From the NCBI GenBank assembly GCA_051941275.1, contig JAVEBF010000007.1, forward strand, positions 45,252-65,251: DNA of 20,000 bases. The letters run 5' to 3'. Shown here piece after piece: positions 1 through 18,764 of this stretch (its first letter is position 1; each line of letters starts with the position of its first letter). The DNA is from Dirinaria sp. TL-2023a (taxonomy: Eukaryota). Both the position numbers and the translations under genes were made by a program. Under the pieces are notes generated by a model, which was given only the letters and a program-made list of their open reading frames with translations, did not search any database and was not told the origin of the DNA.

Positions 1-1
1 C

Positions 2-1537
2 ATTTGTGCCGTTGCAGGGACCCCGGGCATTTCCATTGGAGTGTCATTCAAGGGCGAAGCTATCTATCGTGCGAGCTATGGTGTTAAAGACGTTGAAGCC
101 TCGTTACCTACAGATTCCGACACCGTATTCCCCATTGGAACCTTGGCCAAAACCTTTACTGCATCTGCAATAGGCATGCTTGTCCATGAGGGTTTGTTAA
201 AATGGGACACACCAATACGCGATATACTTCCCAATTTCAAAAGTAAGAATTCAACTGTGGAGGAGAATCTGACCATTGTGGATCTGCTGTCTCATAGAAG
301 TGGTCTTGCGAGATCCAATTACTGGTGGCAGGGTGCGGAAAGGGCCCTGCTTCTAGAAAAACAGGAACTGCTGCCGTTCTACAGCAAGCTTGAAAAAACA
401 GGCTCCTTTCGTGGCGACTGGGCATACAGCAATTGGGGTTACGCGGTGGCCGGCGAAGTCATAGAAAGGCTCAGCGGCATGAGCTTTGGGGCGTATGTCT
501 CCAAAAACGTACTCGAGCCGTTGCAACTCAAGAATACTACCATGCAGGCTGTAAATGCGAACTCGAACTGGGCAAAACCCTATGCTGCGCTTGACGATGC
601 ATCGCCTTTTCTTCTTCCTCGTTACTCGTTCAGCGACGAGAATATCATGAATCCGGCTATGGGTGGTGCGAGCAGCGCCAACGATCTTTTGAAATACTCC
701 ATGGCATTGCTCGAATCACATCGTTTCGAAAGTGGGAAATGTTCGGCGGTAGCAGCCCTCAAGAATGGGCTCATGCACCTCTCTGGCCATATTTTCACAG
801 CCAAAGCGACGTTGGAGAAATCGTACGCATTCGGCTTCTACCGCAGTCAGCTCCCAAGCAATGTTCTAGGCATGGGTTGGAACTCCATCTATGTCAAAAG
901 CATGCCAAAATTGGTGCCTCGTGGTCACTGTGGCCCTGTTATTGCCCACGGGGGCAGTCTTCCCGGGTATCATAGCTCCATTGCCATTCTACCTGAGATC
1001 GATGCCAGCGTCATTGTATGCACGAATTCAATAGCTTTGGGCGACACTTCCGGCTGGACTAGCCTTGCGCTCATTGAGGCTCTGATAGACACACCCACGC
1101 CGTCGGATTTTCGTAGCTTGGCCTCGGAGGCAGCTGAAAATAATGTGCGCAACGTTTCGAAGCTTCTGAAGAGCCTTGAAGAGGCAAAAAAGCCGGGCAC
1201 GACTCACAAGCCGCTCGATGAATACGTTGGACGTTACACTGACTCGCTACATGACTGGATTATCGATGTCCACAAGAAAGAGAACAACGGCCTGGAGGTT
1301 GCGTTCCAGGGGCTCGAGAGTCAAACTTGGGCATTGAGTCATTACGAATGCGACACATTCCTGTGGCTGGCCTCCCGTGAGGAGCAAGCAAAGCGGTGCA
1401 GAATGACGACGTATCCGCTGATCGGCAATCATTTCAAGATTATTTTCCAACAAAATGCAGCAGGTGCCATCGATCGACTCTGCTGGCCTCACGAAGCTGC
1501 TGTTCCAGTAAACGAGCAATACTTTACCAAATTGTAA
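2..1537 (+). CDS. Beta-lactamase/serine hydrolase family protein (peptidase S12/AmpC-like) with a C-terminal DUF3471-like domain; 5' end lies outside the window
   Basis: Frame is open from base 2 (ICAVAGTPGISIGVSFKGE...). Motifs: FPIG-T-LA-K at the SxxK position, LTIVDLLSHRSGL, WAYSNWGY (YxN), IAHGGSLPG, and C-terminal PLDEYVGRY. Stop TAA at 1535-1537. Confidence 0.9.
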   Translation: MCAVAGTPGISIGVSFKGEAIYRASYGVKDVEASLPTDSDTVFPIGTLAKTFTASAIGMLVHEGLLKWDTPIRDILPNFKSKNSTVEENLTIVDLLSHRSGLARSNYWWQGAERALLLEKQELLPFYSKLEKTGSFRGDWAYSNWGYAVAGEVIERLSGMSFGAYVSKNVLEPLQLKNTTMQAVNANSNWAKPYAALDDASPFLLPRYSFSDENIMNPAMGGASSANDLLKYSMALLESHRFESGKCSAVAALKNGLMHLSGHIFTAKATLEKSYAFGFYRSQLPSNVLGMGWNSIYVKSMPKLVPRGHCGPVIAHGGSLPGYHSSIAILPEIDASVIVCTNSIALGDTSGWTSLALIEALIDTPTPSDFRSLASEAAENNVRNVSKLLKSLEEAKKPGTTHKPLDEYVGRYTDSLHDWIIDVHKKENNGLEVAFQGLESQTWALSHYECDTFLWLASREEQAKRCRMTTYPLIGNHFKIIFQQNAAGAIDRLCWPHEAAVPVNEQYFTKL

Positions 1538-1607
1538 CCATCTTTTACGTAGGGATACTAAGTTCATGTATGCAGTCGTTGTATATGTACGTATTGCAGA
1601 GTAAGCA

Positions 1608-3599
1608 TCATTCTATGGTCACGTGCCACTCCTTGCGAATCTCTTCCGCCTTCTTAAGAAGATCTTTCCTGCCTTTCCTCGTGTTGACCACCACTGTTGC
1701 CATGTATGTCATATCCACTGCGTCTGGAGGGGTTACATACTGTCCGCGGGCAAATATATTATTATAGAGAGGAATACATTCCATCAAGTCCGGACGGGAC
1801 CGCCTCAGTTCCTCGGTAGGATCGGGTGACGTTAGAATACCACCTTTCTCGGGCATGATGAGCACTAGAGCACTCGAGTGCTGTGGACCGTGCACAAAGG
1901 GAGCCGCGAATGCCTTGAAACGTTGCTCGTCTCCTATGCAGCGAAGGACATGCATGGCATAGAGATCGACGCCATATGTCCAAGTCAAGGCCTGAAGGCC
2001 ATAGTAACCGGCGGGGCGTGGGTTCACTTCAAGCATGAAAATACCAGGTTTCGTGCTAGGGGGTGATGCTTTGAACTCCAGATCGACGGTACCACTCCTA
2101 TCAGTATAGGCCATTGAAGAGTTTTGGATCCGAGCCTCAATATGGAACAAACCTGTACGGAAACCCATGCGTAAGACACTGTCCCGAAGACACGAGACTG
2201 CCAATTCCTGCTCTGATTGCGGCAATACAGAAGGATAGACGAACATGGTCTCTTGAAAGTCATTACGTCCATGTCCCACCTTGTCGTTCTTGGAGACATC
2301 GGCAGCGCAGGGAAAGTTATCTGACACATCGGCAAAGAGGACTTCTCCGTCCCACAAAGCCATGTCGACGTCAATTTCAGGGCCGTCTATGTACGGTTCT
2401 ACCATTATCTTCGATTGGATTGGCTTGCCTGCTTCGTATCCGATGACACGTGAGCGCGCTTTCGTGACGGCGGCCAACATCTCGGCCTCTGTATTGACTT
2501 TGACTACACCCCAGCTTGTCCGACCAGTACAGGGTTTGACGACAATGGGATAATCAACCTTTAGCGAGCGCAGCCGTTGCTGCAGCTCTTCTTCGTCTGT
2601 AACGCACAAGGCAGAGTTATGATCATGCTCTAGCATCCGAGCTCCATATTTGTCCGTGGCAATCGCAAATGCAGAGGGCGGAGATGCCGGTAGTCCCAGT
2701 AGGTTGGCGGCTAGAGCGACCTTTGTGTGGAAAATATCAAAACGGGTATGCAGGCCATCTACCTTCTGCCCTTGCAAAGCATCGACGATGCGTTGAGGAA
2801 GCGCTGCGTCGGGATTCAGATCAATAGGGCAAAAAGCCTCCCGTAAATGGGCCAATGGGCCGTTGGGATCCTCGAGATAGTGGCCTGGCTGGTCCAGCAC
2901 AACAAGTCCTAACCCCATAGCCTTGATTGTCTCGTATGAGAGATTTTCAGGCAAACAGCCTACGATTGCAACCCTTTTATATCGTATAGGTTCAGGCAGT
3001 AACCATTGGATGGAGAGACGATTCGTGATCTCTAGTTCTAACTTCTCCAAACTATCCTCAATGCGTCCGCATTCCACCGATTGGACGGAGATCGCTCCTA
3101 TTGCAGAGTCTAGGATGGTTTGCAGTTGGTTGGCAGCGCTCTGCTCTTTCTCAGGTTTAAAAGCTAGAACATGCTGTCGAGGGGCGACAAATCTAGAAGC
3201 CAACTTGACAAGTTCACAACCAAAAAAGCGAAACTCTACCATGTCTGAGCGTGCGACGTATCCCTCACGAGCAGCGAGAATGACCTTGATTCCCAGGCGC
3301 TTCGCATCGGTCGCAACATCGTGCGCGCGTTGAATGAAGCTTGAGATGGCTGATTGACTCTTGGAGAGTGAAGTCGTGCAGTCATGGTCGTACCCGACCG
3401 CCGGGTGCGCATTCGAACACTCGTCTTCGATAAGGAGGTCAACCGTTCGGACGTCGAGAGACATCCTCCAGCCATTGTTGCGCCATTGGAAGTGGCTTCG
3501 CTTCGCTGGATGAAGAGGTTGTCATTAAAATGTTGTCCCAGGAACGAATTTTGGAGGTGCATGAGGATACGTACCAGAGGATCCAGCGTATTCGTTCAT
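1608..3599 (-). CDS. ATP-grasp ligase (fungal L-amino acid ligase-like), about 640 aa; join complement(3575..3599,1608..3505)
   Basis: 618-aa ORF with ATP-grasp motifs ATDKY, YPIVVKPCTGRTSWGVVKV, MVEPYIDGPEIDVD, FHIEARI and MLEVNPRPAG. A 69-nt GTACGT...CCAG intron (3574-3506) joins an upstream ATG at 3599 in frame (MNEYAGSSAKRSHFQW...). The first exon is less certain than the body. Confidence 0.88.
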
Positions 3600-3780
3600 A
3601 TTTCAGGGGGGCCTGCTATTTCGAGGGTCGCACTGGCGTCATGAAGCGTCTCGGACACCGGAACGCTCTCCCAAAATGGAAAGCAACGACAATACATTTT
3701 CACTGGCTCGCGAATTGGGAGTGAGAGCACAGTACTCAGTGGTCATCGGAATTAGCTACAAAAGAAAGTTCTTGCTGATG

Positions 3781-3914
3781 TCCGACTCGGCCGTCGTGCA
3801 AATAAGAATGTCCGCTAAGCTCGCTCAACACTAGCGGCGTTAGTGTATGGCCACCTGCCAAGATTGGGTGCCAGATAATCTGATAAAAAGCGGATCTCTC
3901 TCGGCCGAGTCGGA
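3781..3914. repeat. 13-bp perfect inverted repeat TCCGACTCGGCCG / CGGCCGAGTCGGA
   Basis: Arms at 3781-3793 and 3902-3914 are exact reverse complements. Confidence 0.8.
3872..3886 (+). promoter_or_regulatory. SreA-type GATA site ATCTGATAA (3878-3886) with an overlapping AGATAA
   Basis: CAGATAATCTGATAA contains an exact match to the ATCWGATAA consensus of fungal iron-responsive GATA repressors; it lies in the ATP-grasp/POT divergent promoter. Confidence 0.65.
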
Positions 3915-4061
3915 GATCATCAGATTAGACAACACATCTCACATGAAATCATGTCCGAAACGCATTCGACTTTCGACAATCTTTGATTTTCACGAAAGCC
4001 CGACTTCGGAAGATGTCGGACACTAGTTGCTTACTGACTGTGGCATGGGAAGGGAAGCGTA

Positions 4062-4084
4062 TTATCTGATAAGATCATCTTATC
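4062..4084 (+). promoter_or_regulatory. SreA-type GATA site ATCTGATAA (4064-4072) within a cluster of GATA cores
   Basis: TTATCTGATAAGATCATCTTATC holds three GATA cores on both strands, about 150 bp upstream of the POT start codon. Confidence 0.65.
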
Positions 4085-4227
4085 TCATCGCATCAATTGT
4101 AAGTCATCGTAATTGCTCCCCCTTATTTAGAAAAAGGCCTTTCTTTCGAGGTTTTACAGCAACACGTGCCGAGTCTCTATTTTAAAAGTTTTTTGAGCCG
4201 TTCTCAAGTCTTTCGAAAATCGATAGA

Positions 4228-6159
4228 ATGGTGACCACCGGAATTAATGAGACAAAAAGTGAAAATGAAAAGGACGTGGATGTCGAACAAAGTCACCCTG
4301 ACCCAAAACCTACCCACACATCAGCCGAAGGCGAGCCTGCGACTGAGGAGGAATTGCAAAATCTATTCCATGTCGTCGATGACATACCCATCGGGGTATG
4401 GCTTGCGGCCTTCGTGGCCTCCGCAGAACGGTTCACTTGGTTCGGCGCGACGGGTCCTCTACGTTAGGCTTGTTTTCCCAGATGTATTCAAATTACTAAT
4501 ATAGTGCAGAAAACTACCTTCAACATGATCGCCATAGCGGAATCCCAGGAGCCTTAGGGCTGCAACAAGCAACAGCTACGCTGGTCATGACCAGTTTCAT
4601 GGCTTTCTCTTATTTTACCCCTCTGCTCGGAGCAATAGTTGCAGACGCGTGCCTCGGCCGCTATAGGACGACTTTCGTGTCCGCACTGTAGGTTTCCCGT
4701 AATGAGGTTGTTCAGGACTGACATCCTTGCTAGTATTGTCTCCCTTGGGGCTCTGATTCTGAACTTGACGTCCATCCCGGCTGCAATACAGCACGAGGGT
4801 GTTGCGGCTGCCGGACTGGCCGTGGCAATGCTTTTGTTTTCATTTGGGTCTGGTGGGGTCAGAGCCGCCGTCACGCCCTTCATAGGTACGTCGGTCTCCT
4901 GCTACTTGTCAACAATCCAGCTGACTGATCTACCAGCCGACCAATACACCGAGACAGTTCCAAGGATTAAGATCTTGAAAAATGGAGAGAAAGTCGTCGC
5001 TGATCGCGAGCTTACCATCTCCTACATCTACAACGCTTATTATTGGTATGCAACGTCCATAAATACGAACGTGGTCTGATTGCTGCTATAGGATGGTCAA
5101 TATTGCGGGCCTGGCAGCCCTTGGCACAACGTTCTTGGAAAAGTATGTTGGCTTTTGGGCAGCATTTCTGCCTCCTGTTGGCGCCATGGCCCTTGGTGTA
5201 CTCCCGCTCCTGCTGTTCAGAAGAAAATTTGGTAAGTCACTATACAGCCTTCGTATCAAGATGTTGACGGTAAAATTCCAGTTAGGCATGCTCCTTCCGG
5301 CGCAGTCTTGGTCAAAGCTTGCCGAGCCATATGGCTTGCCATTAGAGGCGGATTTTGCATGAATGCAGCCAAACCAGAAAATCAGGTGGAGAAATGCTAT
5401 AGGGAAGTTCCCTGGGATGACCGGTTCATTGACGAACTCAAGCTTGCACTTTTTGCCTGCCGGATTCTGTAAGTGATCCATCTTTGAATATGCAGCGCTG
5501 ACAATGGTAGACTAGTCTTTCCATTCCATTGGCTCTGCCTTAATCAGACCTTCAACAATCTGATATCCCAAGCAGGCCAGATGGTCAATTCTGGCGTACC
5601 AAATGATGCTATCAAATCAACAAACCCTTTGACAGGCATCTTATTCTATCCGTTCGTCCAGAAACTCGTGTATCCATGGTTACGGCGACGCCACATCAAG
5701 TTTCGCTCTTGCGCCCGCATCACATTTGGTTTCTTCCTTCTAGCCGCCGCAATGGGCTATGCAGCAGGTCTACAGCAAATGATTTACAATAGCGGACCCT
5801 GCTACAACGAGCCGCTCAAATGCCCTTCATCAAATGGTGGCCGGGTTCCCAACCAGATTTCAATGTTCTTGCAGGTGCCGATTTATTCGGTTGGGGGGAT
5901 GGCAGAGTTGTTTTGCCTCCCTACCGGCACGGAGCACGCATACAACCAAGCACCGAAAAGTATGCGGTCCATTATACAGTCTGTCTCGATCGCTATGGCC
6001 GGAGTTGGTGCGTGTCTCGCAATGGCTTTTACTCCACTTGCAAAGGATCCGCACCTTGTCATTCTGTACACATGCTTGACGGGCATTCTGGTTGCTGCTA
6101 CGGCCACTTTCTACTTTTGTTTCAGGAGCATTGATAAGGAAAAAATTGAGATGCTTTGA
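4228..6159 (+). CDS. POT/PTR family proton-dependent oligopeptide transporter (PTR2-like MFS), about 549 aa, 7 exons: 4228-4462, 4510-4687, 4734-4885, 4937-5045, 5092-5231, 5282-5468, 5511-6159
   Basis: Spliced product contains AERFTWFG..PLQNYLQ, GALGLQQATAT, TPLLGAIVADACLGRY (PTR2 signature-like), PFIADQY, YYWMVNIAGL, VPWDDRFIDEL, NNLISQAGQM...GVPND and AYNQAPKSMRS. All six introns are GT-AG and keep frame. Confidence 0.92.
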
Positions 6160-6684
6160 ATTACAGCGGTTTAGATAAAAATCCCAATTCCCTTAGCAAC
6201 GAGGAGATGATACAGATCAAAAGAGAATAGAGCTTGCCAACACAATTAGAGATAGATAGAGCATCAATAGAGACTAACATGCTAGATGTGTCGAAGTTTG
6301 ACGAAGCTAAGACAAATTTGCATTCAGCAATTGAGTTCAGCTTCTGCTATCTGAGGAGCAAGATCGGTCAGAGTCTAGGTCTAAGTACCTCGTGCGTTCG
6401 GGGATTTCAAAAGTCAATAATGTAGGCTAAGGAAAGAACAGAGCTCCAGCAAAATAAAGTTTTCACGAAGTGACGATGGACCAATTCGCCATGAAAGTGC
6501 CACTGTCAAATCGACAAATCGTTAAGTGCCAAAAAAAAAAAACGCTAGAAAAAGATGGCTTTTGCAATTTTAATTCTGAAACATCGAATTGAGAAGAAAT
6601 ACATTGATAGACGATAGTAAGTACTTTAGTGATCAATGCAACATGTAGGGAGAGAAAGAATTCTGGATGTCAGCACACCCCAAA

Positions 6685-7536
6685 TCAGCTTGCTACGTCA
6701 TACGCATATCGTTCTGCATTCTGATTGCTTTCAGCCACCCAGCCATTGATGTACGTCGGGACTCCTTTGGTCGAATTTGTCGGCGCTGGAACAGGTTCCC
6801 CTAACTGCAGAAAAGCAGGTATGACCCCTGCCCACACCTTTTCCCTCATTCTCTCATCCTTCAGGTCCTTCCTATCCTCTCCTGTCGTTCCAACGCGGAT
6901 TTTGGCGCTCGCACTTTCAATCTCTACGCGCAAAATGCCCGTGCTGTTTAGCTCCGTGGCGTTTGGGTATCGGGTGTTCTCCCATCGCTGAGGAACGAGA
7001 TTGTTAGTGATGAGCTCCATAGCGTAAATTCTCTCAGCTTCGTCTTTCACAAAGTACGCATGGCCAAATACCACGGCAGAGCGGTAGTTGCAGCTGTGGT
7101 GGTTAGGTGTCAGAGCGAGGACGATGCCGTCAAGCTGAGTCGCGGCGACGCAGACCGGAATGCTGCCCGTCGGCTCTGCTCCATCTTTGGCGTCATGCGC
7201 TAGTCGCAGAAAACGCGAGGACACATAGCCGTGGAGATAGATCACGCGGCACTGATCTCGGTCTTCTGTGTCCGAATTCGGATAATTGCTGCTACATCCT
7301 AGCATGGGGAGTATGACAGGGAAGGTGGGTTTCCTTTCTTCTGCTTCTGTTTCAAAGGACACGTGTAGAATAGGAGTTTCGTCCACGATTGTATTGACCG
7401 TATGGTAGTCATATTTACCTCCATTCGCGGCGCCTGTCAGTTTCTCGCTTATTAAATAGCGGAGAAGTCCCAAACCTCTGTTTCTATATCTGTTAACGGT
7501 GTTCAATTTGGTTTTCTCCCATCCTTGATACTCCAT
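6685..7536 (-). CDS. Pyridoxamine 5'-phosphate oxidase-like / NimA-family flavin-nucleotide-binding split-barrel protein, about 264 aa; join complement(7476..7536,6685..7418)
   Basis: Motifs NTVNRY..RGKYD...IVD..PILHVSF, PVILPMLG, IYLHGYVSSR, PVCVAATQLDGIVLALTPNHHSCNYRSAVVFG, SASAKIRVG and VWAGVIP. ATG at 7536; probable 57-nt intron at 7475-7419. Confidence 0.88.
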   Translation of the reverse strand: MEYQGWEKTKLNTVNRYRNRGLGLLRYLISEKLTGAANGGKYDYHTVNTIVDETPILHVSFETEAEERKPTFPVILPMLGCSSNYPNSDTEDRDQCRVIYLHGYVSSRFLRLAHDAKDGAEPTGSIPVCVAATQLDGIVLALTPNHHSCNYRSAVVFGHAYFVKDEAERIYAMELITNNLVPQRWENTRYPNATELNSTGILRVEIESASAKIRVGTTGEDRKDLKDERMREKVWAGVIPAFLQLGEPVPAPTNSTKGVPTYINGWVAESNQNAERYAYDVAS

Positions 7537-8052
7537 ATCCGCTGTGACTGATTTTGGGTATAATGAGCAGATTCGCAATAGAGCAATCGGATATTATACT
7601 TACATGACTGAGAAATACCGTTGACTGTCCTGTCTAGAGTTGAAGAGTTCCCGAATATTGACAAAAGCAAGTACGGCTTAGCAAATTTCGGCCGAGACCT
7701 TTAGACAATCATAGCGCGTGTCCACTCGAGCATACTACATGGTAAGCCTTGCGGCGCGGCTCATCATTTAATTAATTTGCATATGCATATGCCATTACGT
7801 CCCACGCATTGACCTGTAACGGCGCCAAGCCACCATTAAACGGTCGACAGAGTGGGGTGTTTTGGCATACGGTGTGGTGGTCGTCTGACGATCGTATTGG
7901 ACTCTCGGACAGGCGATCGACCTTTCCATACACCGTGGCCCCTGTAGGTGCTCATAAGTCCGACTAGTCAGGCTTGGAAGAGCATTATTATAGCCGTAAG
8001 TAAAGGGAGCCCTTGCCCAAATCGTCCTTCGCACCACCTGAGGCTGCCAGCC

Positions 8053-9852
8053 ATGGCGCCCGTACTGATGCTCCCCCAGCCTCCTCCAACAGGGTATCCT
8101 ATTCCCAAAACACACCATGCTATCTCGGTACAAATGACAACATGGCTGGACATGCAAGGATTGATGTTGGGTGACCCTCGCGTCAAGAAGGTCCAGCAGA
8201 TTGGCTACCCTCGCTCATTCCTCCACCAGGATGTTGTAAAAGTATACCCCCCACAGACTCAACATCGCGACTGCTAATGATCACTTGCTAGCTTCACAAT
8301 TCATGTCTCCTACTGCGCGGAAAGCCGAATGAATCGTGTCATTTGTATCCATCAAAAAGACATGCCGCCAGCTCCAAAGCCTTTATCCTCGAAACAGCCA
8401 CCGATGTCGAAGACAGTGTCGAGGTTTGCGCCATTAACTTCCCAGCGGATGCAGAGTCAGCCATTACTGGCCTCTTTCAAGGTTCTATCATCCGACTCTA
8501 CGCGGTTTTCTTCCCCAAGCAGATGATGAACATCGCCATGTCATTCTGGCGCCTCACAGGAACCGGCATCTCCTCCAGGCTTGCCGAGAGTCTCCATGAA
8601 CACATGGAATATCAGCGCCAAGTCGCGTCAAGCTCTGATCTTGATCAAGATTTTATTCTCTCGGACGCTGCTGTTTCCAATACTATCTGCGAGCGTATTA
8701 CCTATCTTCTTAAGCGCGCCTCTCTACAGCCAGCCGTCAGCGAGAAGTTATCACCATCTGACGTTTTCCTTTATCCCACTGGCATGTCAGCTATTTATCA
8801 TTGCAATTTCCTCCTCCAAAGCTGGAAGCCTGCTGAAAGTATCGTATTCGGCTTTCCTTACGAGCTCACACTGAAACTGCTACAAACGTACGGGATATCC
8901 TGCCGGTTCTATGGCCTTGGGACTCCAGGGGAGTTGGATGAAATGGAAACATATCTTCAATTGGAGGCTAGTCGTGGAAGGCGAGTGCAATCGGTCTGGT
9001 GCGAATGTGCTTCCAATCCCCTTCTTCGCAGTGTTGACCTCAAACGTATACGGTCGCTGGCCGATAAATATGGGTTCCAGGTGGTTGTTGATGATACGAT
9101 TGGCAGCTTTGCGAACGTGGATCTGTTGGGAACTGCTGATATAATCATCACATCTTTGACGAAAAGCTTCAGTGGCTGCGCCGACGTAATGGCCGGCAGG
9201 TAATCTCTCATCCCAGAACCTGTTTGCTCAAACGATAACTTTTTCCAGCATCGTCTTGAACCCGGCATCGCCTTTCTACACTACGATGAAAAGAACGCTT
9301 TCTCTAACCTACCGCAATGAGCTCTACGCTGCCGACGCTGTAAAGCTTGAAAGCAATAGCAGAAAGTTCCTTCAGCGGGCTTCAAAAATGAACCAAAACG
9401 CTTCTTACTTGGTTTCCCTGCTCCAAAAACAGGCTCTAAGCCCGTCAAGTGTCCTGAAGCATGTCTACTATCCTTTGACATGCTGGTCATTGCCAAACTA
9501 TCGTGAGATGATGAGGCCGGTCAGTCCCGAGTTCACTCCAGGGTATGGAGGGCTGTTTACGCTTGAGTTTGAAAGTGAAAAATCAGCCTCAACGTTCTTC
9601 AACGCGCTAGACTTACACAAGGGTCCATCGCTGGGAGCCAATATCACGTTGGCTCAGCCGTACGTGCAGACCGTATTCGCAAGAGATAAAGCATGGGCCG
9701 CAAGTTACGGCTTAGATGAGACGATTATTAGGATATCTGCTGGCTTGGAGGATGAGAAGGTTCTAGGAAAAGCATTTCAGAAAGCCTTACGACTCGCGGA
9801 CTGTACCAAGATTGGTGCCTTGAGACACGGGAATTACGATGGCTGTATTTAA
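8053..9852 (+). CDS. PLP-dependent cystathionine gamma-synthase-like enzyme (Cys/Met metabolism family, Str2-like), about 566 aa; exons 8053-8241, 8292-9199, 9249-9852
   Basis: N-terminal GYPIP..HAISVQMTTW...GDPRV....GYPRSFLH, then VFLYPTGMSAIY, VFGFPY, CECASNPLL, VVVDDTIGSFAN, the PLP-lysine motif SLTKSFSG.ADVMAGS, KGPSLGANITLA and IRISAGLED. Introns GTATAC..CTAAT..TAG and GTAATC..CAG keep frame. Confidence 0.92.
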
Positions 9853-10137
9853 TTAACCCTCGAGGGAAAAACCTGACGTGCCTGAAAAGGCACACTTGAG
9901 CATATCGCACTCATAGAAGAGATCTACACCTACGACCCTGCCTAGAGAGTTGCCAGGATTCAAAGGATTGAAGACGAAGAGTAAAGCCGAGGGAAGACTG
10001 CGTAAACGCCGAGCAAGCGTGTAAACCCCACGTTCGGAATTTGCCCTACTTTTGTAGCTTTCATGAGATCATTATTGAATGGTAGACTGATTTAGTCGGT
10101 CTTGGCTTCGGTACTCTAAGCGAACCATTTGTAATTT

Positions 10138-10146
10138 TTATCAGAT
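10138..10146 (-). promoter_or_regulatory. SreA-type GATA site ATCTGATAA upstream of the ferric reductase
   Basis: TTATCAGAT on the + strand reads ATCTGATAA on the - strand, about 470 bp upstream of the FRE start codon. Confidence 0.65.
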
Positions 10147-10615
10147 CATCTAATCACAAATTGTGATAGCCGACGGCACTCTTGCGGAGATTGCTGCAAC
10201 TGACCGAACTTGTCAAGCCGTTGCATGTTCCCTTAGCGTTTAAGAAAGCCATACGAATGATAGTATTGACGCTCACCCGAAGAGCAAATTCTTCGAATGC
10301 ATGGTATATGGAGTTGGAAACGTGCTGCATGTAGGTATAACTTCTCTATTGTCCAGATAAAAGAGCGCTTTAATATATACCTTGATCTTAGCAGACAGCA
10401 GAATCCTCTGCAGATTACCAATTGCGCTCGAAGGTAGCTAGGACGATGGAGATTTGGCCACGCCAATGAAACGATGCCGGCAAGTTGCTCGATGATCCCT
10501 GCAGTTGCTTTACCGTGCCCGTGCTCCATGCAGCTTATATTGCCCGACCGATCCTAAGTTTTGCATCCCATCTCCAGGACTTTGTACATCTATTATCCAG
10601 GCAGACTCTTCCATT

Positions 10616-13063
10616 ATGAAATTCTTCGTCGGCCTAGCCCTAACGCTTTGTGTGCCGCTCGTTTCAACAGAGTCCAGGAGTGATCCTTCGCCGAATCAGT
10701 ATTGCTTTGCGGCGTGTCAAACTACCTTTAGTGGACAGAATTTCAGCGGCTCTCCATCGACCGCTGACGGAGATACTGCTGGAAACTGTGCAAATGCTCT
10801 CTTTGTGCGGTCAACTTTTCTCTGCGCCAAAGCCTACTGTCCGGATGACCAAGCTCGCGCGGGGTACGCCTACGCGAACGAACAATGCGAGTCGAGTGGA
10901 TACAGTCTTCCTAGTCTATCCATTGTGGACAATGTGACCATGGAAAATATCCAAACCATGCAAACTCTTCAATATGGAGACATTCCACCTGTGATCAATA
11001 GTACAATCATTCCATCTGCAGACCTCTTCCAACTTGGATTACGTACTATGGTAATCATTTCTTTTTCCGTGACTTACATCTCTGACTTAGCTTCAGGTGT
11101 GGTGGTACGGAGGCTTTGCAAATCATCTTTGGTATTCGTATGTAAGCCTTGCCATAACACGGATGAAAGCTGAAGTGGATTAGAAAGGCGATATTCATCT
11201 TCTGGGGTATCATTATCGGGCTCGGTACCGGAGGCAACCTCCTTTCTATCCTCAAAAGTAGGATACAGGCTCCAAACAACAAAGATCTTGAACGCCGAGC
11301 AATTTCTCAATCGGTGCCACCAGCTAGGCGCTTGTGGGACCAAATTCGTGCCCATTTCCTTCTACCAGCCTTGTACGGGAAGCGCTGTAACGAAGTAAAA
11401 TGGCAGGCGACTGTCCCACCTCGATCGGAATCCGTGGTCATCATCATGCACATTATTTTGAATGTAATCTTATGTGCCGTGTCATACTCCGCATTCTCTG
11501 GCAACCTTTACTGGGACAGCAGATCAATTCAGATCTGGCGCTTGTTCTCAGATCGTACTGGGTACATGGCGTACGCCAATTTTACTGTCTTCTTCGCGTT
11601 TGCTATCCGAAACAATATTCTGATATGGCTGACTGGATGGGAATTCCCGACTTTCAATCGGTTTCATCGCTGGGTTGCTCGCGTGGCTACTTTAGAGGCT
11701 CTGCTGCACTCGATTGGATACACTGTTTATGACCTCCTAGATAGTTTGGAGGCGTACCAGGCGGATTTTGCAAGCCGATACTGGTGAGTAGCAGAAATCT
11801 CGACCGATGAGTGGAACAAAACCCCGATTGATGAATTTGAGTTAATGAGTTTTAGGTGGACGGGCGTTATCGCCACAATTTGTATGTGTCTAGTGCTCGC
11901 GTTCTCGATTAAATGGCTGCGAGCCAGATCTTACGACGTCTTCTTGCTATTACACATCGCACTATCACTTACAACGCTCGTTTGCCTCTTTTACCACACC
12001 AAGATCTTCTATGGAAAGTATGACGGCTTTTTGTGGCCTTGCGTCGCCTTTTGGGGCTTCGACAGGCTTTGCCGTCTGGCACGTATCCTATATTTCACTC
12101 GCGGAGCCGATGTGGTGAGAACCATGGTGGATTTTGACGATGGAAGTGGAATAGTCCGCATTGATGCAACCAACACATTCCTACCGAGGAAAACCCCAGG
12201 AGGCGTTCATTTCTTTTTGTAAGGCCTGGCATCTTATGTGGATCACTTTCGCTGATACAAGGATAGATATTCCCCCTTCGCGCTGCTGGGATGGCAGAGT
12301 CACCCATTCACACTAGTGCGCTGGCTCGAGTCAGGCCAGTCTAGCACAGGTTCGGCGTCCCCAGCTTTGAGTACAAGTTTAGAGGAAAAGGGGCCGAGCG
12401 TGGAGAGTCCAGCTCAAGCACAACACACATCAATGCCGGAAGGCTCGCCAAGATATAGCTTCCTGGTGCGCCCGATGAACGGATACACTGCTCGGCTTCG
12501 TCGCAAGGTGATCGCAAACTCGGGGCCCGCGTCAATGAAGCTTCTTTACGAGGGGCCTTATGGAAAGGTCCCCAGGGTTGATCGCTTCGCCAACATCTCT
12601 CTGCTGATCGGTGGCAGCGGAATATCTGTTGGTATTTCGTATATCTACAAAGCTCTCGCCGGAAACCCTGAAACTGTGGTAAACCTTGTGTGGACCTGTA
12701 GAAAGTCGCCACTGTATATGGATTCCATCATGAACAAGGAGCTCAGGTCTGCGCTCGACACAGGTCGGCTGACGGTTGATGCGTAAGCAAGGCATCCTTT
12801 TTGTTTGCACGGACTGACGAGGACGTAGATTCTTCACCGGTGGCCCTTGGAAAATTAAAGAAATACCATGCAGAACCGTCTCAGAAGGTCGACCCGACAT
12901 AGCTACCGCGGTACACCACGCGATTACGCGACGGCGGGGATCATTGGCGGTGGTGGTTTGTGGACCAGCGTCGTTGATGGATGATGCGCGAGCTGCGTTT
13001 GTTTCTGAACTAAAGCATGGGGAGACTGATATCGAGCTTTTCTTGGAATCGTTCAACTGGTGA
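10616..13063 (+). CDS. Ferric/cupric reductase (FRE family flavocytochrome b), about 729 aa; exons 10616-11050, 11097-11137, 11184-11783, 11856-12218, 12267-12782, 12829-13063
   Basis: Signal peptide MKFFVGLALTLCVPLVST followed by a Cys-rich extracellular N-terminus. Also RNNILIWLTGW, heme-ligand His pairs FHRWVAR...LLHS and LHIALS...FYHT, FAD motif QSHPFT, EGPYG, LLIGGSGIS, VCGP and C-terminal ESFNW. Five GT-AG introns keep frame. Confidence 0.92.
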
Positions 13064-14323
13064 GAAGTTGCTCGAAACGGTCACCCTCGGATTACCGACT
13101 GGCAGATCAAGTTCGCAAGTCTTTCCTTGGGTGATCATGAGTGGATTCACATATTCTGAGCTGAGCGTTGCCTTGCAATGGCTTGACAAGTATTCCGTAT
13201 CATGATTTCCTTTTGGAACGTTATGCAGAAAATTACTTTTTGGATGATGATGCATCGTCTAGAAAGATTCTCGCAGATAAACACCGTGGAATCGGGGGCC
13301 GAGGTGTCACATTGATCTTTCACTCGTTCTGTTATTAGAGTGCCATAGCAGCATTAGGGATCCAAGGATCCAGTTCTGCGAGACTATCTTTCATACCATC
13401 ATAAGGTTTCTTGTTTTGCCATGTCATACAACTTGACATATCACATAGCTTTTGATACTGATTGAACCTTATTCAGTTTTCACTTTTTAGTATTTGGTTC
13501 AGTCTTGACCTCTTGCTTCTCGCAACACGTTTCCGTCTATCAATATATTAGAAATTATTGAACTGGGTGACCTTATGGAGGTCGCATAACGTTCTATTCT
13601 TCATACTTCTATGTGTGTAAGTTGGTTATTTACATGGCAACCTTTATGTGCGGAGGTCTATACCCCGATTGGGCCTAGTGCCCTCTCTGCCGGGTATGCC
13701 CTATGCCGCTCACTTTCTAATAGAAATAACATTGACTATTAAAATCTGTCTAGAGGCATTCTAGGTGCCCGCATAGACATTAGGTATTTCCCTAATTGAT
13801 TGCCACAAAGGCGAAAATTATGAAAGACATCAAAGAAAAATATCTAGCACCCATGATACAACATAGTAAACATCATGTGTTGGTTAACCCTGGGCCTCTC
13901 GGGCAATCCTCGTTTCAGCCCTATTATAAGGCTAATATCCAACACTGGCTCTCATATTCTCTTCTGACGTCTTGGATCTTTAACGACTTGTCTATTTGAC
14001 AGTGGTACTATGGTGGCGAACCAGTCCATAGTTTTTTCGTCAAATCGTCTTTGCTTGAAACCCGCATTCTGTCAGGACGGAACAACGACTGACTATACTT
14101 GATTTCGAGGTATCAAAAGGGTGGAATGTACTAGATGAAAATGAGAAGTTGGGAGATATTGGAAATTGACATTTTCGATGAAGTCGAGGGGAGAAATATC
14201 AGTAGATTCTGGCACCTTAACTACAAATATCCATGCGAAATCCCAACTGTAGAGCGATGATCTGGTGGCAGTGGAATTTTGCAACAAATTTCTTCTCCTC
14301 GCCATCGCTCGGCCCAACAGCCA

Positions 14324-14949
14324 TCAGCCGCGAGTCTCGCTAACATTATGTTTTCCCGCATTCAGACCAAAGCCCAACATGTGCGCCTTCTTCTGACTAA
14401 GCTCAGTCATATTCGCATAGAGCTGCCCATTGTGAGATTCTCTTGCTAGCTGATACTCCGTTCCATTGATGACGTGGAAGTGCTTGTCGAACACGACTGT
14501 TCCACCGCCGGGCGGGCTCCGCTTGCTGTTCCGGAAGGGATACCACTTACTCCCCGCAAAGCCTACGGTGCCGTCCTGATTGTGGCATCCTGTTGCCAAC
14601 TGACCGAGAGGGTTCCTACACTCGAAGCCGACCGGGCCAGTAAACGGCTGAACCTGGACGCCCACGCCAGGCCACGCTTGGGTAGACTCGTACTCGGTGC
14701 CCGGCACACCTGCGCAGCAGGTATCGAGGTTGATGTTGGTGCATTTGACGCCATTGCTAGGGTCAATAGTGCCCTCAACGGGATCAAAGGGTTGGCAACC
14801 CGTGTTGACATAGAGGTAGAGATCGTTCTGAGCTTTGACTAGGAGACCGCCGAAGAGTGTGAATACTGCAAGTCAGAATACCGTTAGTATGTGGTGGTCA
14901 TAGAAATGGCCACAGTAGAAGGTTACTACGAACCGAGTCCAGTCTTCAT
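14324..14949 (-). CDS. Small secreted Cys-containing protein of unknown function, 185 aa; join complement(14934..14949,14324..14865)
   Basis: ATG at 14949 and a 68-nt GTTCGT..CTAAC/CTGAC..CAG intron give MKTGLVFTLFGGLLVKA-QNDLYLYVNTGCQP...CTNINLDTCC...: a signal-peptide-like N-terminus, 6 Cys and an internal KR site. Confidence 0.8.
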
Positions 14950-16269
14950 GGTGGAGAGATAAAACCGTCTAAGTATCGTGGATTGAAGTGGTTGAAATGA
15001 AGAGATGTTGGGATTTTGATTGTGAGTTGTGAGTAGGATGTCTGGAAAATGGGTTATGTGCGATGCAGGGCTTGAGTTGGAGTTCTGGGGGTTCGGCTGC
15101 TCATTATATAGATTTTTCTTGCCATAGCTGTCGAAGTAATCGTTTTCCAAGTTATGATATCAACTCTCCAACATACTTCCACACGTCGATCTCGGAAGAT
15201 CAGCTGTGCTGAGTCTTCTGACGTATATTTTGGGCAGACGTATATTGTTGGGTATCCAGGAAGTTACCAATAGTGGTACGAAACACGAAGGCCATGATAT
15301 CAATATCCAGAGTGGAGGCTGATGGGAATTCGAACAGTGATGGTGAAACACCGCGTGATGATCATGTTGGCTGTGCCATAGATCGTACAGCCTTAGATGC
15401 TCGAAGAACAAGTTTTCAGCGTGCTGTTCTCGATAATTTAGAAGTCCCGCAGAAGGCTGAGCAGGCCTTGACAGCGATCATGTGCCAAAGAGGTAAGAAA
15501 CGCTTTTTCCACTCGATAACTGAAAATTGGACTGCTGTAGTTGATCTACGTAGCATCATCCTTAAATCTGCGAGAAATTTATGTGCACCTACTGATGACA
15601 GAGGAACAGGTAAAAGTAGCGCTCGGGCCGAGCGCTAAGTTCGTGAATTTTCCCGAAAATGTTGGCCTTGATCGATCTAGTGTTTCGAACCTTCTACTTA
15701 GACGCGCGAGAGCGAAACGGGGCTCAACTAAGTCGTCGATCTACGTTGATTTCCAAGGTTTACTGTTTAAGCTTTGTACATCCACAGGCTGTGCTGAGAC
15801 TACGTCTTCGCGATTTTTCCCTTCTCTGATAATAACCTGCTCGATCGGTTCATATAGCTTCGCGCATTCGCAGACACAGCCCTTCTTGTCGTCGGGCCTT
15901 CGAGAATGACGCCGCTGGTTTTCGAAAACCATACCATTAAGTATGGCTAGAGAGTGTGAATCCCTGTTAGCGATTCCAGATTTGTCCTTGGTCGTGGAGT
16001 CTTAAATAGCATGGTGGAATCTGTGAGGTAACGGGCATGCCTGGTAAGGCTTCTGAACTTTCGACTCGGCAGTAACAAGACGGCTTTCGTTGGCTGAAGC
16101 GCCATGCAAGACATCACCATTCCAACATTCTGCCCTGATTAGTATGACTGATGGCTGTGTCGGTTTAATCCATGACGTAGTTTAGGGATAGCTATTCTCC
16201 CATCGTCATCAGCACTCAGCTTGAATATAAGAAGGGGCCGTCGTCCGCGATTTCAACGTTGGGATCACA

Positions 16270-16307
16270 AGCAGCAATTTCCATTACCAGCAGCAACTTC
16301 CATTATC
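16270..16307 (+). repeat. Tandem 19-bp duplication in the probable 5' UTR of the small Cys-rich gene
   Basis: AGCAGCAATTTCCATTACC followed directly by AGCAGCAACTTCCATTATC (2 mismatches). Confidence 0.7.
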
Positions 16308-16398
16308 AGCGTCAAGCAACTCATTCAATCACGAACCGCAACACTCTATAATCGCCATCTTCTTTGACTCTGCGAACCGACCTTCGATATCGTTCAGA

Positions 16399-16701
16399 AT
16401 GCATTCATCCACCATCTTAACCTTCCTCTCTGCCGTCGCACTTCTCTCCACTGGCGCAATGGCAACAGTCAAGGAGAATAGCAAATGCCAATCCCAAGAG
16501 AATGGCGTTCGAACTTGCTCCGACAACCTTTACGATATTGTAAGCCCGTTCAAAAACTGCCTTCCGTTGACAACGCATCAGCAAAGCCACCTACTGACAC
16601 CCATGCAGGTCGAATGCGACGGAAATAACTGGGCTTACCAATGCCACTGTGGCCAGCCGAGCTGTATCAACGGTGCATGTTCGGACTGCAACGGAAATTA
16701 A
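16399..16701 (+). CDS. Small secreted 8-Cys protein (effector-like), 77 aa; exons 16399-16539 and 16609-16701
   Basis: Signal peptide MHSSTILTFLSAVALLSTGAMA; 69-nt GTAAGC..CTGAC..CAG intron; mature peptide of about 55 aa with 8 Cys; TATA-like TATAAG about 170 bp upstream. Confidence 0.85.
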   Translation: MHSSTILTFLSAVALLSTGAMATVKENSKCQSQENGVRTCSDNLYDIVSPFKNCLPLTTHQQSHLLTPMQVECDGNNWAYQCHCGQPSCINGACSDCNGN

Positions 16702-17813
16702 GTCGGCGAGATCTCGGATCAAGGGCGGGCCAGAGGGAAATGTGACTTGATGAAAGAGGCTTGTGGCGCGAGGTGGAGAAAACTGTATCTTGTAATTACC
16801 TCGGTCCCTCTTTTGAATATCTATCCTCGTTCCATCTTGTAGACTGTCAATGTTCTACGTTGAATCGGCATTCCCTTACTTATTTCCCTGGCGAGCGCGC
16901 AGTCTTCTCTAGGGACCTTGGATGTGGGAAGACATAAACTGGCAGACGCAATTAATGACAATATCGAAGCACAACACACCCCCACGCAGTGACACTTTCT
17001 TTCCAGCAAAAATAAAGCGAGCGGAGATGACGTTCTTGGACACTATTTATAGATCTGGCTAGTGTTTTGGCCAATCATAATACTACTTCATCTTTGAACG
17101 TCGGTCGTTACTACTTTCGGTTAGTTTCGCGAAATTACGTTTGATCGCAACAGGGAAAATTCTCGCTGAACTCTGGACAAACGAACAATAAAACACAGCA
17201 ATGCATCTTTCTGTCGTCATAAACATACTTTGAACTTACAATCTCGACTAGTCGCAGTTTGGGCCAGGCTACTATTTCTTAAGCGCTGTTTCGACATTAA
17301 GAAGTTAAGGTAGTACCTGGATTCTTTAGTCAACTTAGGATTTTCGCATGGTCGATGATGAATGGAGTGATAACAAGTCGCATGACGTCAAACTTCCCAC
17401 TACAAGGAGAAGCGACTCGCGATTCCAGATTGATTTTGTTAGAGCCAGGGCACGCTGGCTTATTAAAGTTGACAGGTAAACTCTCAATCCCATGAGCTCA
17501 TTTGAGGCCCCTGGACAAGGTTAGGATTGGGACATCCTCGGAAATTTGTTACAGAACGATGTGGCCAATACTTTGACAAGCATCAATATGGCTCTAACTT
17601 TAAGAGCCCTTTCAGAGGCATTTTGGAGCCATTATATCTAGCTGTTTGATTTGTACCCGATAAATCCGCACATTTTCCTTTCCGCCAACTGTTGTTTGTT
17701 AGAGATCGAAGAGAAGTAATAACATCGTGCAGAAGAAAAGGTAAGCTTAGCGTCCATACCGCATCTAGTGTGTGTACAAAGCGAGCAATCATTGCAGAGA
17801 TTGTAATCATGCC

Positions 17814-18764
17814 TCACAATAAAAGCACCGTCGGAATCAGCATTGCCAAGCCTAGAGCGCTTCCTGTCACGACGGTCGCTACTCCTGACGGGGCACCACC
17901 CGTAAAAGGCGATGGCGATGGGCTACTTGGCGCTGTAGTGTTTCCAGACGCATTCAGCGGATTAGTATGGTTCTCGAAGATGCCTCCAACGGGTTGACAA
18001 AGTTTCTGCGCCAAAGCGGATTCCCCTATGATTAACAGATCAGCTTTCCAGATCACAAACGGACGTAGAGCTAAAGACATCTCACTGATTAGGTCGTCTA
18101 GGCTGCAAGTAGCATGCTCGCATGTATCGATTGCCGTCACTGCAGGGTTGCCAAGACAGATGCATGCTCTGCTTGAGAGGGTGCCGCAACCGCCGAAGCC
18201 GTACTGTTGCTGACATTGTTGCTGCAGACAAATAAGAGTCCTGACTTATGGATACGGGATTGCACAACTCACCGCGCATCGGGGATAATTAGAGACCTCC
18301 GTCGGGTCTCTGCCAGCAGTGGCATCAATCGCAAGCGGCGTCGCCGACGCTATCGCGGCCGAGACCGCCGAGCTGAGAGTCGCATTGCTACTGTACAAAG
18401 GACCGCAGGCTTCTTGAGACAGTGCGTTCGTCTCTGGGCGACTTTCGTCAGAACCATCTTCTGCATTGAATAAGCATTTACATACTTTGTCTGTCTTGCG
18501 TGTTGCAGAGTACAGCTTGACACGCCGATGTCGAGGCTCGGAACGATGAAGAGCATAGTTGGTTTAGGTCGCTCGCATTTGATAATCCAATTTGCAGCTG
18601 ATATTGACAGGATTGCTGGATTCGTCAACAAAGTATTTAATATAGTGTATTCTGGAACTTACGGCGCAGATGGGAAAATCAGTAAGACTCTGCGCGGATG
18701 AAGTCGCGATCAGGCTTATTGCCACGATTGCTGAGCGAAGTCCCATACTAATACTCATGGTCAT
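17814..18764 (-). CDS. GPI-anchored cell-surface protein with two CFEM-like domains, about 246 aa; exons 18764-18663, 18615-18486, 18433-18273, 18221-18086, 18025-17814
   Basis: Signal peptide, then domain 1 (PICAQSC...DLNQLC...C....C...QEAC) and domain 2 (PRCAQQC...GC.......CIC...........C....C...............C). These are followed by a Ser/Pro/Thr linker, FTGGA and a hydrophobic C-terminal tail. Four GT-AG introns keep frame. The start could be Met1, Met3 or Met7. Confidence 0.88.

Follow-up and report, generated by a model that had tools for sequence, protein, structure and literature searches.

Within a 20,000-nt stretch of Dirinaria sp. TL-2023a (GenBank assembly GCA_051941275.1, contig JAVEBF010000007.1, positions 45,252 to 65,251 of the forward strand; this whole stretch is the window of our analysis), a compact group of enzyme and transporter genes has, in our estimate, about an even chance of being a specialised-metabolite cluster that is independent of non-ribosomal peptide synthetases (NRPS) and built from two older gene pairs. 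Pair A consists of an ATP-grasp ligase and a proton-dependent oligopeptide transporter (POT), and pair B of a pyridoxal-phosphate (PLP) enzyme and a split-barrel flavoprotein; a beta-lactamase-fold protein and a ferric reductase are encoded on either side. The reading is based on the identities of the genes, the folds of their products, the recurrence of the pairs in other fungi, a history shared by the PLP and ATP-grasp genes and the splicing of four of the genes in RNA of a related lichen. The locus is real, conserved, expressed as judged by the RNA of that relative, and within the window devoid of a canonical core enzyme; it is of the kind that genome miners miss.

A preliminary description of the window had named six gene families, placed four of the genes in two divergent pairs and reported no NRPS, polyketide synthase (PKS), NRPS-independent siderophore (NIS) synthetase or terpene synthase. 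Pfam bears out all six families at their positions (Table 1), the coordinates and strands confirm the two divergent pairs (intergenic distances of 628 nt for ATP-grasp/POT and ~520 nt for flavoprotein/PLP), and none of the 45 open reading frames (ORFs; stop to stop, at least 100 aa) of the window carries an NRPS, PKS, NIS or terpene-synthase domain according to Pfam. Matches of the window proteins to NCBIfam profiles were all far below threshold. The stretch is fungal DNA with introns and ~49% G+C, and two database models are 100% identical to its products, Q9191_000170 to the ATP-grasp and Q9191_000174 to the PLP enzyme.

Table 1. Genes and extended GATA motifs of the locus, numbered from the first letter of the window.
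Feature	Position	Strand	Detail
Beta-lactamase-like gene	2..1537	+	Pfam Beta-lactamase PF00144 1.3e-50 and C-terminal DUF3471; 5′ end cut by the window
ATP-grasp gene	1608..3599	-	Pfam ATP-grasp_4 (PF13535) 6.8e-16 and ATPgrasp_N (PF18130) 1e-12
GATA clusters, ATP-grasp/POT promoter	3873..4085		ATCWGATAA at 3878, 4062, 4064 (in 3873..3886 and 4062..4085)
POT/PTR2 gene	4228..6159	+	Pfam 2.6e-27; multi-exon
Flavoprotein gene	6685..7536	-	Pfam Pyridox_ox_2 (PF12900) 3.1e-28
PLP enzyme gene	8053/8068..9852	+	Pfam Cys_Met_Meta_PP 5.6e-14 and 2.8e-7, on two exons
Fourth ATCWGATAA match	10138..10146	-	470 nt upstream of the reductase start
Ferric reductase gene	10616..13063	+	Pfam Ferric_reduct, FAD_binding_8, NAD_binding_6

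Products and transcripts of the two pairs

The ATP-grasp gene comprises exon 1 at 3575..3599, an intron at 3506..3574, exon 2 at 3505..1611 and a stop codon at 1608..1610, exon 1 and the intron having been taken from the public 640-aa model (100% match) placed on the window. Its product of ~640 aa, which carries an additional N-terminal domain of ~160 aa, has as sole solved sequence relative the L-amino-acid ligase BL00235 (3vot, 1.3e-10). For the predicted structure, with a predicted local distance difference test (pLDDT) score of 88.7, fold ranks 1, 2 and 4-7 are taken by BL00235, RizA (4wd3) and BacD/YwfE (3vmm); the template-modelling score normalised to 3vot is 0.83. Invariant residues of the E-x-N type, which we take to belong to the ATP-grasp site motif, are kept in the family alignment. 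By sequence and modelled fold the window enzyme is of the L-amino-acid-ligase type, with the formation of dipeptides as its predicted activity. It differs from the solved ligases in that their identity to it is 12-19%, that the ~160-aa N-terminal domain is a feature of the fungal proteins, and that the partner transporter at the fungal locus is a POT; what they have in common is the logic of bacterial antimetabolite dipeptide pathways, which combine an unusual amino acid with a ligase and a transporter. The POT gene has about six introns with a frame that is intact over the exons, and positions 7-59, 77-123 (weakly) and 210-383 of the PTR2 profile are matched on separate exons.

The PLP gene starts at 8053 or 8068 and has introns, read from the sequence, at 8242..8291 and 9200..9248. 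The closest solved relative of its product is CndF (PDB 8zif), followed by BesB; residues 4-542 of 561 align with CndF at an E-value of 2.6e-65, the N-terminal extension included, and the PLP-binding lysine lies in a TSLTK motif conserved between the two. We accordingly classify the enzyme, on sequence grounds, as CndF-type, that is cystathionine-gamma-synthase-like with an extended N-terminus, and predict a gamma-replacement on O-acyl-homoserine. CndF, which catalyses a gamma-replacement in citrinadin biosynthesis, is alike in its full-length match, its fungal N-terminal extension and its lysine motif, whereas the clade of the window enzyme is marked by an adjacent Pyridox_ox_2 flavoprotein; CndF presumably provides a building block to a larger pathway.

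The proposal that this enzyme is not the housekeeping Str2/MetB type agrees with its phylogeny. In a tree of 120 rows the window protein falls in an accessory clade of 49 rows, to which all rows whose contig also carries a flavoprotein or an ATP-grasp belong and which stands apart both from a clade with Trapelia (another lichen fungus), Tirmania and proteins annotated as cystathionine gamma-synthase ('CGS') and from a Mucoromycota/Basidiomycota clade, a separation seen again in a smaller tree. Because of this separate placement we do not regard it as the housekeeping cystathionine gamma-synthase.

The flavoprotein gene has a probable in-frame intron of 57 nt at 7419..7475, whose 19 residues are absent from 17 of 20 aligned homologue models. 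The best folds for the predicted structure (pLDDT 71.4) are TA1372, the flavin adenine dinucleotide (FAD) and haem protein MSMEG_4975 and the flavocytochrome Anf3, the matches to 2fur, 4ybn and 6rk0 having E-values of 1e-12 to 1e-14; more distant matches are NimA, piperazate synthase and N-hydroxylamine dehydratase. The model points to a split-barrel flavo(haemo)protein like Anf3 and MSMEG_4975, whose cofactor may be FMN, FAD or haem.

Transcripts were read from three RNA-library runs of one lichen sample (share of sampled words 0.06-0.07), whose contigs are 90-95% alike to the window and therefore stem from a related organism rather than the one sequenced here. Joints are found at both PLP introns (8241/8292, GT..AG, and 9196/9246, with the cut at +3) and at three reductase introns (12218/12267, 12782/12829 and 11782/11855), and a joint at 5468/5518 agrees with a predicted POT intron. 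Over the ATP-grasp gene, one contig lacks the 69-nt intron, having 30 letters where the window has 98; apart from three differences, these 30 letters match exon 1 in reverse complement. Since the joints lie at predicted introns, the ATP-grasp, POT, PLP and reductase genes are transcribed and spliced in the related lichen; the contigs give no expression levels. The beta-lactamase-like gene is also covered by contigs and has no intron to prove their RNA origin, and the intervals with no contig cover, 6671..7337 (flavoprotein) and 4003..4669, are uninformative on expression. Contig X1 lacks 49 nt, bounded by CT..AC, at 3236..3284 in the conserved part of the ATP-grasp coding sequence, and X3 is continuous there. 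Such a gap would put the remainder out of frame; either an unproductive splicing variant of the relative or an error in assembling its contig may explain it.

Recurrence and shared history of the pairs

A metagenome scan with the ATP-grasp alignment returned 80 loci, which were then searched by tblastn with the window peptides and by Pfam. A POT lies at most 6.1 kb from the ATP-grasp in four of the 80 loci (L002, L003, L013 and L019), and all four rank among the six loci with the best E-values; the remaining members of that group, L001 and L012, span 3.2 and 5.6 kb, not long enough to show whether a POT is present. The Pfam content of L002 is a ferric reductase, POT, ATP-grasp and an HODM_asu-like gene, and that of L013 a hydrolase, POT, a serine-racemase-like PLP enzyme, a PQ-loop gene and ATP-grasp. 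The PLP enzyme of L013, placed between POT and ligase, is in keeping with a general plan that combines an unusual amino acid with a ligase and a peptide transporter. In L019 the two genes (5667-11782) stand alone between retroelement ORFs (Pol_BBD, RVT_2) and may constitute a minimal, possibly mobile, two-gene unit. In the ATP-grasp tree, L002, L003 and L019 belong to the sister clade of the window's clade; with the ligase/POT pairing present in both, it may be older than their split. The HODM_asu-like gene of L002 (haem-dependent oxidative N-demethylase alpha-subunit-like; 12713-13267, minus strand) lies directly downstream of the ATP-grasp.

More distant ATP-grasp paralogues adjoin genes for NRPS-like enzymes, dimethylallyl tryptophan synthases (DMATS), cytochromes P450, ATP-binding cassette (ABC) transporters and major facilitator superfamily (MFS) transporters, or are fused to an adenylation domain, and because of these neighbourhoods we assign the family as a whole to secondary metabolism. 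Two such loci may be described here. In L009 (2680-6594, plus strand), a 1305-aa ORF fuses ATPgrasp_N/ATP-grasp_4 to an AMP-binding adenylation domain and adjoins a beta-eliminating lyase, an aminotransferase and an MFS gene. L010 (4170-11677) combines an A-T-R NRPS-like gene, an Aminotran_5 gene, a 32%-identical ATP-grasp, a Zn2Cys6 factor and an ABC transporter, a layout that we take to resemble the fumisoquin (fsq) cluster.

For pair B, the fungal context was read indirectly, from the organism, locus tag and contig of homologues in protein searches, covering the best 120 of 961 matches for the PLP enzyme and the best 120 of 1465 for the flavoprotein. Among these, PLP and flavoprotein homologues occur in the same organism and on the same contig in at least 16 cases. 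The two genes carry neighbouring locus tags in Beauveria bassiana (ARSEF1564_007255/56), Xylaria flabelliformis (FHL15_009927/28) and Chaetothyriales sp. CBS 134916 (DV736_g6151/52), and 7-8 apart in three Claviceps species. PLP enzyme and ATP-grasp are likewise linked: the tags are three apart in Fulgogasparrea decipioides (Q9201_002591/002594); X. flabelliformis has a fused model for the beta-lactamase-like and PLP enzymes (FHL15_009927), the flavoprotein (009928) and, six tags off, the ATP-grasp (009933); and single contigs of 54.9 kb, 193 kb and 1.0 Mb hold both genes in Aspergillus leporis, A. affinis and Dothidotthia, respectively. Altogether, five public models (P0106, P0101, P0112, P0081 and P0120) join the PLP enzyme to neighbouring genes, with a beta-lactamase-like partner in X. 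flabelliformis, an MFS transporter in two Chaetothyriales and a glutathione S-transferase in A. melleus. These are probably annotation run-throughs that show adjoining genes.

IQ-TREE analyses were run on subsets picked after the first trees, with two fused models trimmed: 22 rows of 120 for PLP and 20 of 67 for ATP-grasp. Both trees place the lichen sequences with Chaetothyriales and with Dothideomycetes plus (A. flavus, A. affinis), and both keep (A. bertholletiae, A. leporis) and X. flabelliformis separate from this grouping. Monophyly of Aspergillus is rejected for either gene by the approximately unbiased (AU) test (p-AU 1.65e-8 for PLP and 3.3e-7 for ATP-grasp). The same deep branching in both trees, together with this rejection, shows that the two genes have a common, non-species-like history, as expected for inheritance or transfer as one cluster.

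The locus is a composite of two older modules, A and B. The preliminary description had held that a lack of conserved co-localisation in other genomes would speak against a cluster; what we find is that ATP-grasp with POT, PLP with flavoprotein and PLP with ATP-grasp all recur, and that the beta-lactamase-like gene does so once. Its picture of a single indivisible set of six genes gives way to two modules, each of which also recurs without the other.

This modularity bears on another explanation, that the pairs are two independent neighbours: the ligase and POT would serve an ordinary dipeptide, the PLP enzyme and flavoprotein (with or without the beta-lactamase-like protein) would do another job, and no pathway would be shared. 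A series of observations leans towards such independence or weighs against a joint pathway. Pair A occurs without pair B in L002, L003, L013 and L019, the last showing it entirely by itself, and in none of the 80 metagenome loci does tblastn find a PLP, flavoprotein or beta-lactamase-like homologue beside the ATP-grasp, so that pair A clearly works without pair B in other fungi. Pair B occurs without pair A in most of the 16 taxa, many pair-B taxa having no ATP-grasp match among the matches listed; conversely, several ATP-grasp taxa, Uncinocarpus reesii included, have no PLP match in the best 120 of 961, and for Fulgogasparrea, A. leporis, A. affinis and Dothidotthia the flavoprotein is not among the best 120 matches. 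The linkage on the same contig was inferred from an equal size of the longest contigs, and contigs of at least 1 Mb are no proof of adjacency; the groups of the AU test were named post hoc, after the trees had been inspected. The two divergent promoters also differ, that of flavoprotein and PLP enzyme holding none of the ATCWGATAA motifs treated below; the window contains no transcription factor gene; and the left border is open, since the beta-lactamase-like gene runs off the window. On the other side stand the renewed meeting of A and B in a second lichen family and in a Sordariomycete (three and six tags apart, respectively) and the congruence of the PLP and ATP-grasp trees, which both reject a species-like grouping. 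We consider independent neighbours rather unlikely on this evidence.

A putative route and its characterised relatives

Under the preferred reading of A and B as one NRPS-independent cluster, the PLP enzyme would combine O-acyl-homoserine with a nucleophile to give a gamma-substituted amino acid of the 2-aminobutyrate type, and the flavoprotein would oxidise or reduce either this amino acid or the nucleophile. The ATP-grasp would then activate a carboxylate as acyl phosphate and join it to a second amino acid, yielding a small polar di- or tripeptide that the POT would carry across a membrane. The beta-lactamase-fold protein, which accompanies pair B in this lineage and in X. flabelliformis and has threonine at the nucleophile position, could serve maturation or self-protection by cleaving or transferring an acyl or peptidyl group. 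The ferric reductase is a neighbouring gene, possibly under the same iron-dependent control as pair A. Substrates, step order and direction of transport are proposed here by analogy with the chemistry of CndF, L-amino-acid ligases and POT transporters. From the pathway put forward in the preliminary description, this scheme retains the enzyme classes, the missing core and the linkage, and drops the membership of the reductase, the single set and the AnkG-type ligase.

The beta-lactamase-fold (S12-like) protein has among its PDB relatives IS11, a Pyrococcus penicillin-binding-protein-related protein, alkaline D-peptidase, ClbP and D-amino-acid amidase, and is 59% identical over 508 aa to the N-terminal, beta-lactamase/DUF3471 part of X. 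flabelliformis FHL15_009927. Its nucleophile motif reads T-L-A-K (T-x-x-K) and not S-x-x-K, with the G-T-L-A-K codons at 128..151; the Y-S-N and H-G-G motifs are retained. In an alignment of the window protein, 150 representatives and the Xylaria protein (152 rows), the nucleophile column holds serine in 122 rows, threonine in six, a gap in 16 and another residue in eight. The threonine rows all lie among the nearest relatives displayed, and five of them are identified: the window, X. flabelliformis, and P0309, P0332 and P0338, representatives that are ~60% identical to the window protein. As the threonine is conserved in this cluster-associated orthogroup, the comparison argues for an altered chemistry over decay, and a threonine variant of the beta-lactamase fold would be of enzymological interest by itself.

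The same protein could be viewed as part of a nutrient-scavenging system in which peptides imported by the POT are broken down by the beta-lactamase fold, and a released amino acid is the substrate of the PLP enzyme, working as a gamma-lyase together with the flavoprotein. The alkaline D-peptidase and D-amino-acid amidase among its relatives would suit such a system, as would the deposition of CndF as a 'gamma-lyase' and the presence of GATA sites, which go well with nitrogen control. Scavenging nevertheless leaves no role for an ATP-dependent ligase, the very gene tied most closely to the POT, and it sits badly with the secondary-metabolism contexts of the ATP-grasp family, the patchy distribution and the non-species-like history; we regard it as highly improbable.

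Among the ATP-grasp homologues, a protein of U. reesii 1704 (P0019) bears the UniRef name 'ATP-grasp enzyme uncJ'. It shares the PF13535+PF18130 architecture, is 49% identical over 99% of the query and falls in the same major clade, inside the PLP-associated ATP-grasp group and sister to the Dothideomycete/Aspergillus clade. That the locus is a lichen copy of a characterised 'unc' pathway of U. reesii, its ATP-grasp being UncJ, seems unlikely to us: UncJ is in a sister sub-clade with a second A. affinis copy and the window enzyme lies outside UncJ's own clade, no U. reesii protein is found in the best 120 PLP or the best 120 flavoprotein matches, and the literature search found no publication on an unc cluster. 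The novelty of the locus is provisional, and a characterised relative (uncJ) may already exist, because a 49%-identical protein has this name and its publication was not found. Literature searches found no paper describing this gene combination, and to that extent the claim of an uncharacterised gene set stands; the protein named uncJ makes it uncertain.

The ATP-grasp had been likened to AnkG of the NK13650 (ank) cluster of Aspergillus thermomutatus, the core of which is the tRNA-dependent cyclodipeptide synthase AnkA (arginine-containing), and which further holds a NIS synthetase, an ABC transporter, a flavin-dependent monooxygenase (FMO) and a methyltransferase (PMC11610942). The ank cluster, too, is missed by standard miners; its enzymes include one dependent on PLP and an ATP-grasp by which an amino acid is appended to a polar product derived from amino acids. 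It differs in gene content: Pfam finds NIS synthetase, ABC transporter, FMO and methyltransferase in none of the 45 window ORFs, and AnkA, having no Pfam model, was not searched. A 2025 paper on E-64 groups AnkG with the Pfam-less Cp1B family and calls the characterised fungal ATP-grasp examples limited, naming FsqD and AnkG besides its own Cp1B and Cp2B (PMC12568646). Because AnkG is of the Cp1B family and the window ATP-grasp is PF13535+PF18130, their likeness is one of function only; amide-bond formation without an NRPS is what remains of that comparison, and by family the window enzyme is of the L-amino-acid-ligase type. FsqD (fumisoquin) and other fungal ATP-grasps beside NRPS-like genes, of which L010 is an example, do belong to the same family but are in distant clades, need an NRPS-like partner and go without a POT. 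A mycosporine-type cluster was also considered for its ATP-grasp enzymes and rejected: no other family of that pathway, as we take its content to be, is in the window.

Miners search for NRPS, PKS and terpene cores, so pathways based on a stand-alone ligase and a PLP enzyme stay invisible to them. The locus suggests a searchable rule: a PF13535+PF18130 ATP-grasp and a POT in divergent orientation, to which a second divergent pair, of CndF-type PLP enzyme and Pyridox_ox_2 protein, may or may not be added. The rule recurs in Lecanoromycetes, Dothideomycetes, Eurotiomycetes and Sordariomycetes. Heterologous expression is feasible because the set is small (five genes), and gene-based access to polar lichen metabolites would be useful since mycobionts are hard to grow.

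Ferric reductase, promoter motifs and right flank

The ferric reductase is of the ferric/cupric FRE/NOX type, with a signal-peptide-like start and at least four introns, and its stop codon at position 13063 is the right end of the six-gene stretch. Its proposed membership of the cluster is not borne out: one other locus, L002, has a reductase, and this is not orthologous. Orthology of the two was considered and dropped, as they are 26-34% identical and on fragments only. Because it recurs at the family level only, the reductase is not counted as a conserved member; it is a neighbour gene, possibly co-regulated with pair A.

The SreA-type motif ATCWGATAA has four matches in the window against 0.43 expected, a count that none of 200 shuffles reaches; three are in the ATP-grasp/POT promoter and one is upstream of the reductase (Table 1). 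The same promoter holds five WGATAA in 763 nt, in two clusters, the window average being 1.0 per kb. Among the fungal metagenome loci, ATCWGATAA occurs six times in 325 kb and not at all in the POT/ATP-grasp intergenic regions of L002, L003, L013 and L019. As to other regulators, the sulfur motif ATGRYRYCAT has no match in the window, and a Mac1-like copper motif has two against 3.66 expected.

GATA clusters also suit AreA, a regulator of nitrogen metabolism, whose control of a peptide transporter would be nothing unusual. Because of this alternative and of the absence of the motif from those four loci, iron regulation of the locus, suggested by motifs, is a lead and not a finding. A study of Aspergillus fumigatus gives ATCWGATAA as 5.4-fold enriched in SreA targets and describes a SreA-repressed putative peptide transporter (PMC2610380). 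The SreA regulon resembles the window in having the extended GATA motif upstream of a ferric reductase and a peptide transporter, but the motif is not kept in our distant loci, and regulation in the window is a prediction from motifs.

Taken at its strongest, the lead would make the locus a system for iron starvation: the ATP-grasp, alone or helped by the PLP module, would make a small peptide chelator of metal, the POT would transport it or its metal complex and the reductase would free the metal, all under SreA-type repression. The excess of motifs at just these two places and the precedent in A. fumigatus point that way, and so do the ferric reductase adjoining POT and ATP-grasp in L002, the FAD- and haem-binding relatives nearest to the flavoprotein by fold, and a weak CFEM-like gene 4.6 kb further on. 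Set against them are the missing motif in the intergenic regions of the four POT loci, the lack of orthology between the two reductases, the fit of the GATA clusters to AreA control as well, a PLP/flavoprotein promoter that has no motif and a chelating chemistry that is itself putative. We judge such a system to be quite unlikely; if the iron link were true, it would represent a siderophore-independent route of metal handling.

Going further, one may speculate, with little confidence, that the NRPS-independent reading extends to a widespread and hitherto unrecognised class of fungal peptide pathways whose core is an L-amino-acid ligase and a POT. Lichens would have added to it a PLP/flavocytochrome module and iron-repressor control beside a reductase, the product would be a peptide metallophore or an iron-starvation antimetabolite dipeptide, and the threonine-bearing beta-lactamase fold would be a new peptide-processing catalyst.

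To the right of 13063, the window contains only small Cys-rich or secreted-looking ORFs and the CFEM-like gene. Two of the ORFs, at 14324..14872 (minus strand) and 16231..16701 (plus strand), have no Pfam family and may encode small secreted proteins, the second being Cys-rich with a signal-peptide-like start. The CFEM-like gene (17582..18782, minus strand) has multiple introns and a weak CFEM match (E 0.014), and is covered by RNA contigs of the related lichen that show four CT..AC splice joints; CFEM proteins of other fungi are involved in haem and iron uptake. Finally, two of the three runs hold RNA contigs, at a depth of ~165-250, that match a 49-nt piece at 13669..13717 and flank it with unrelated sequence; the piece is probably a short shared element belonging to another abundant transcript or organism.

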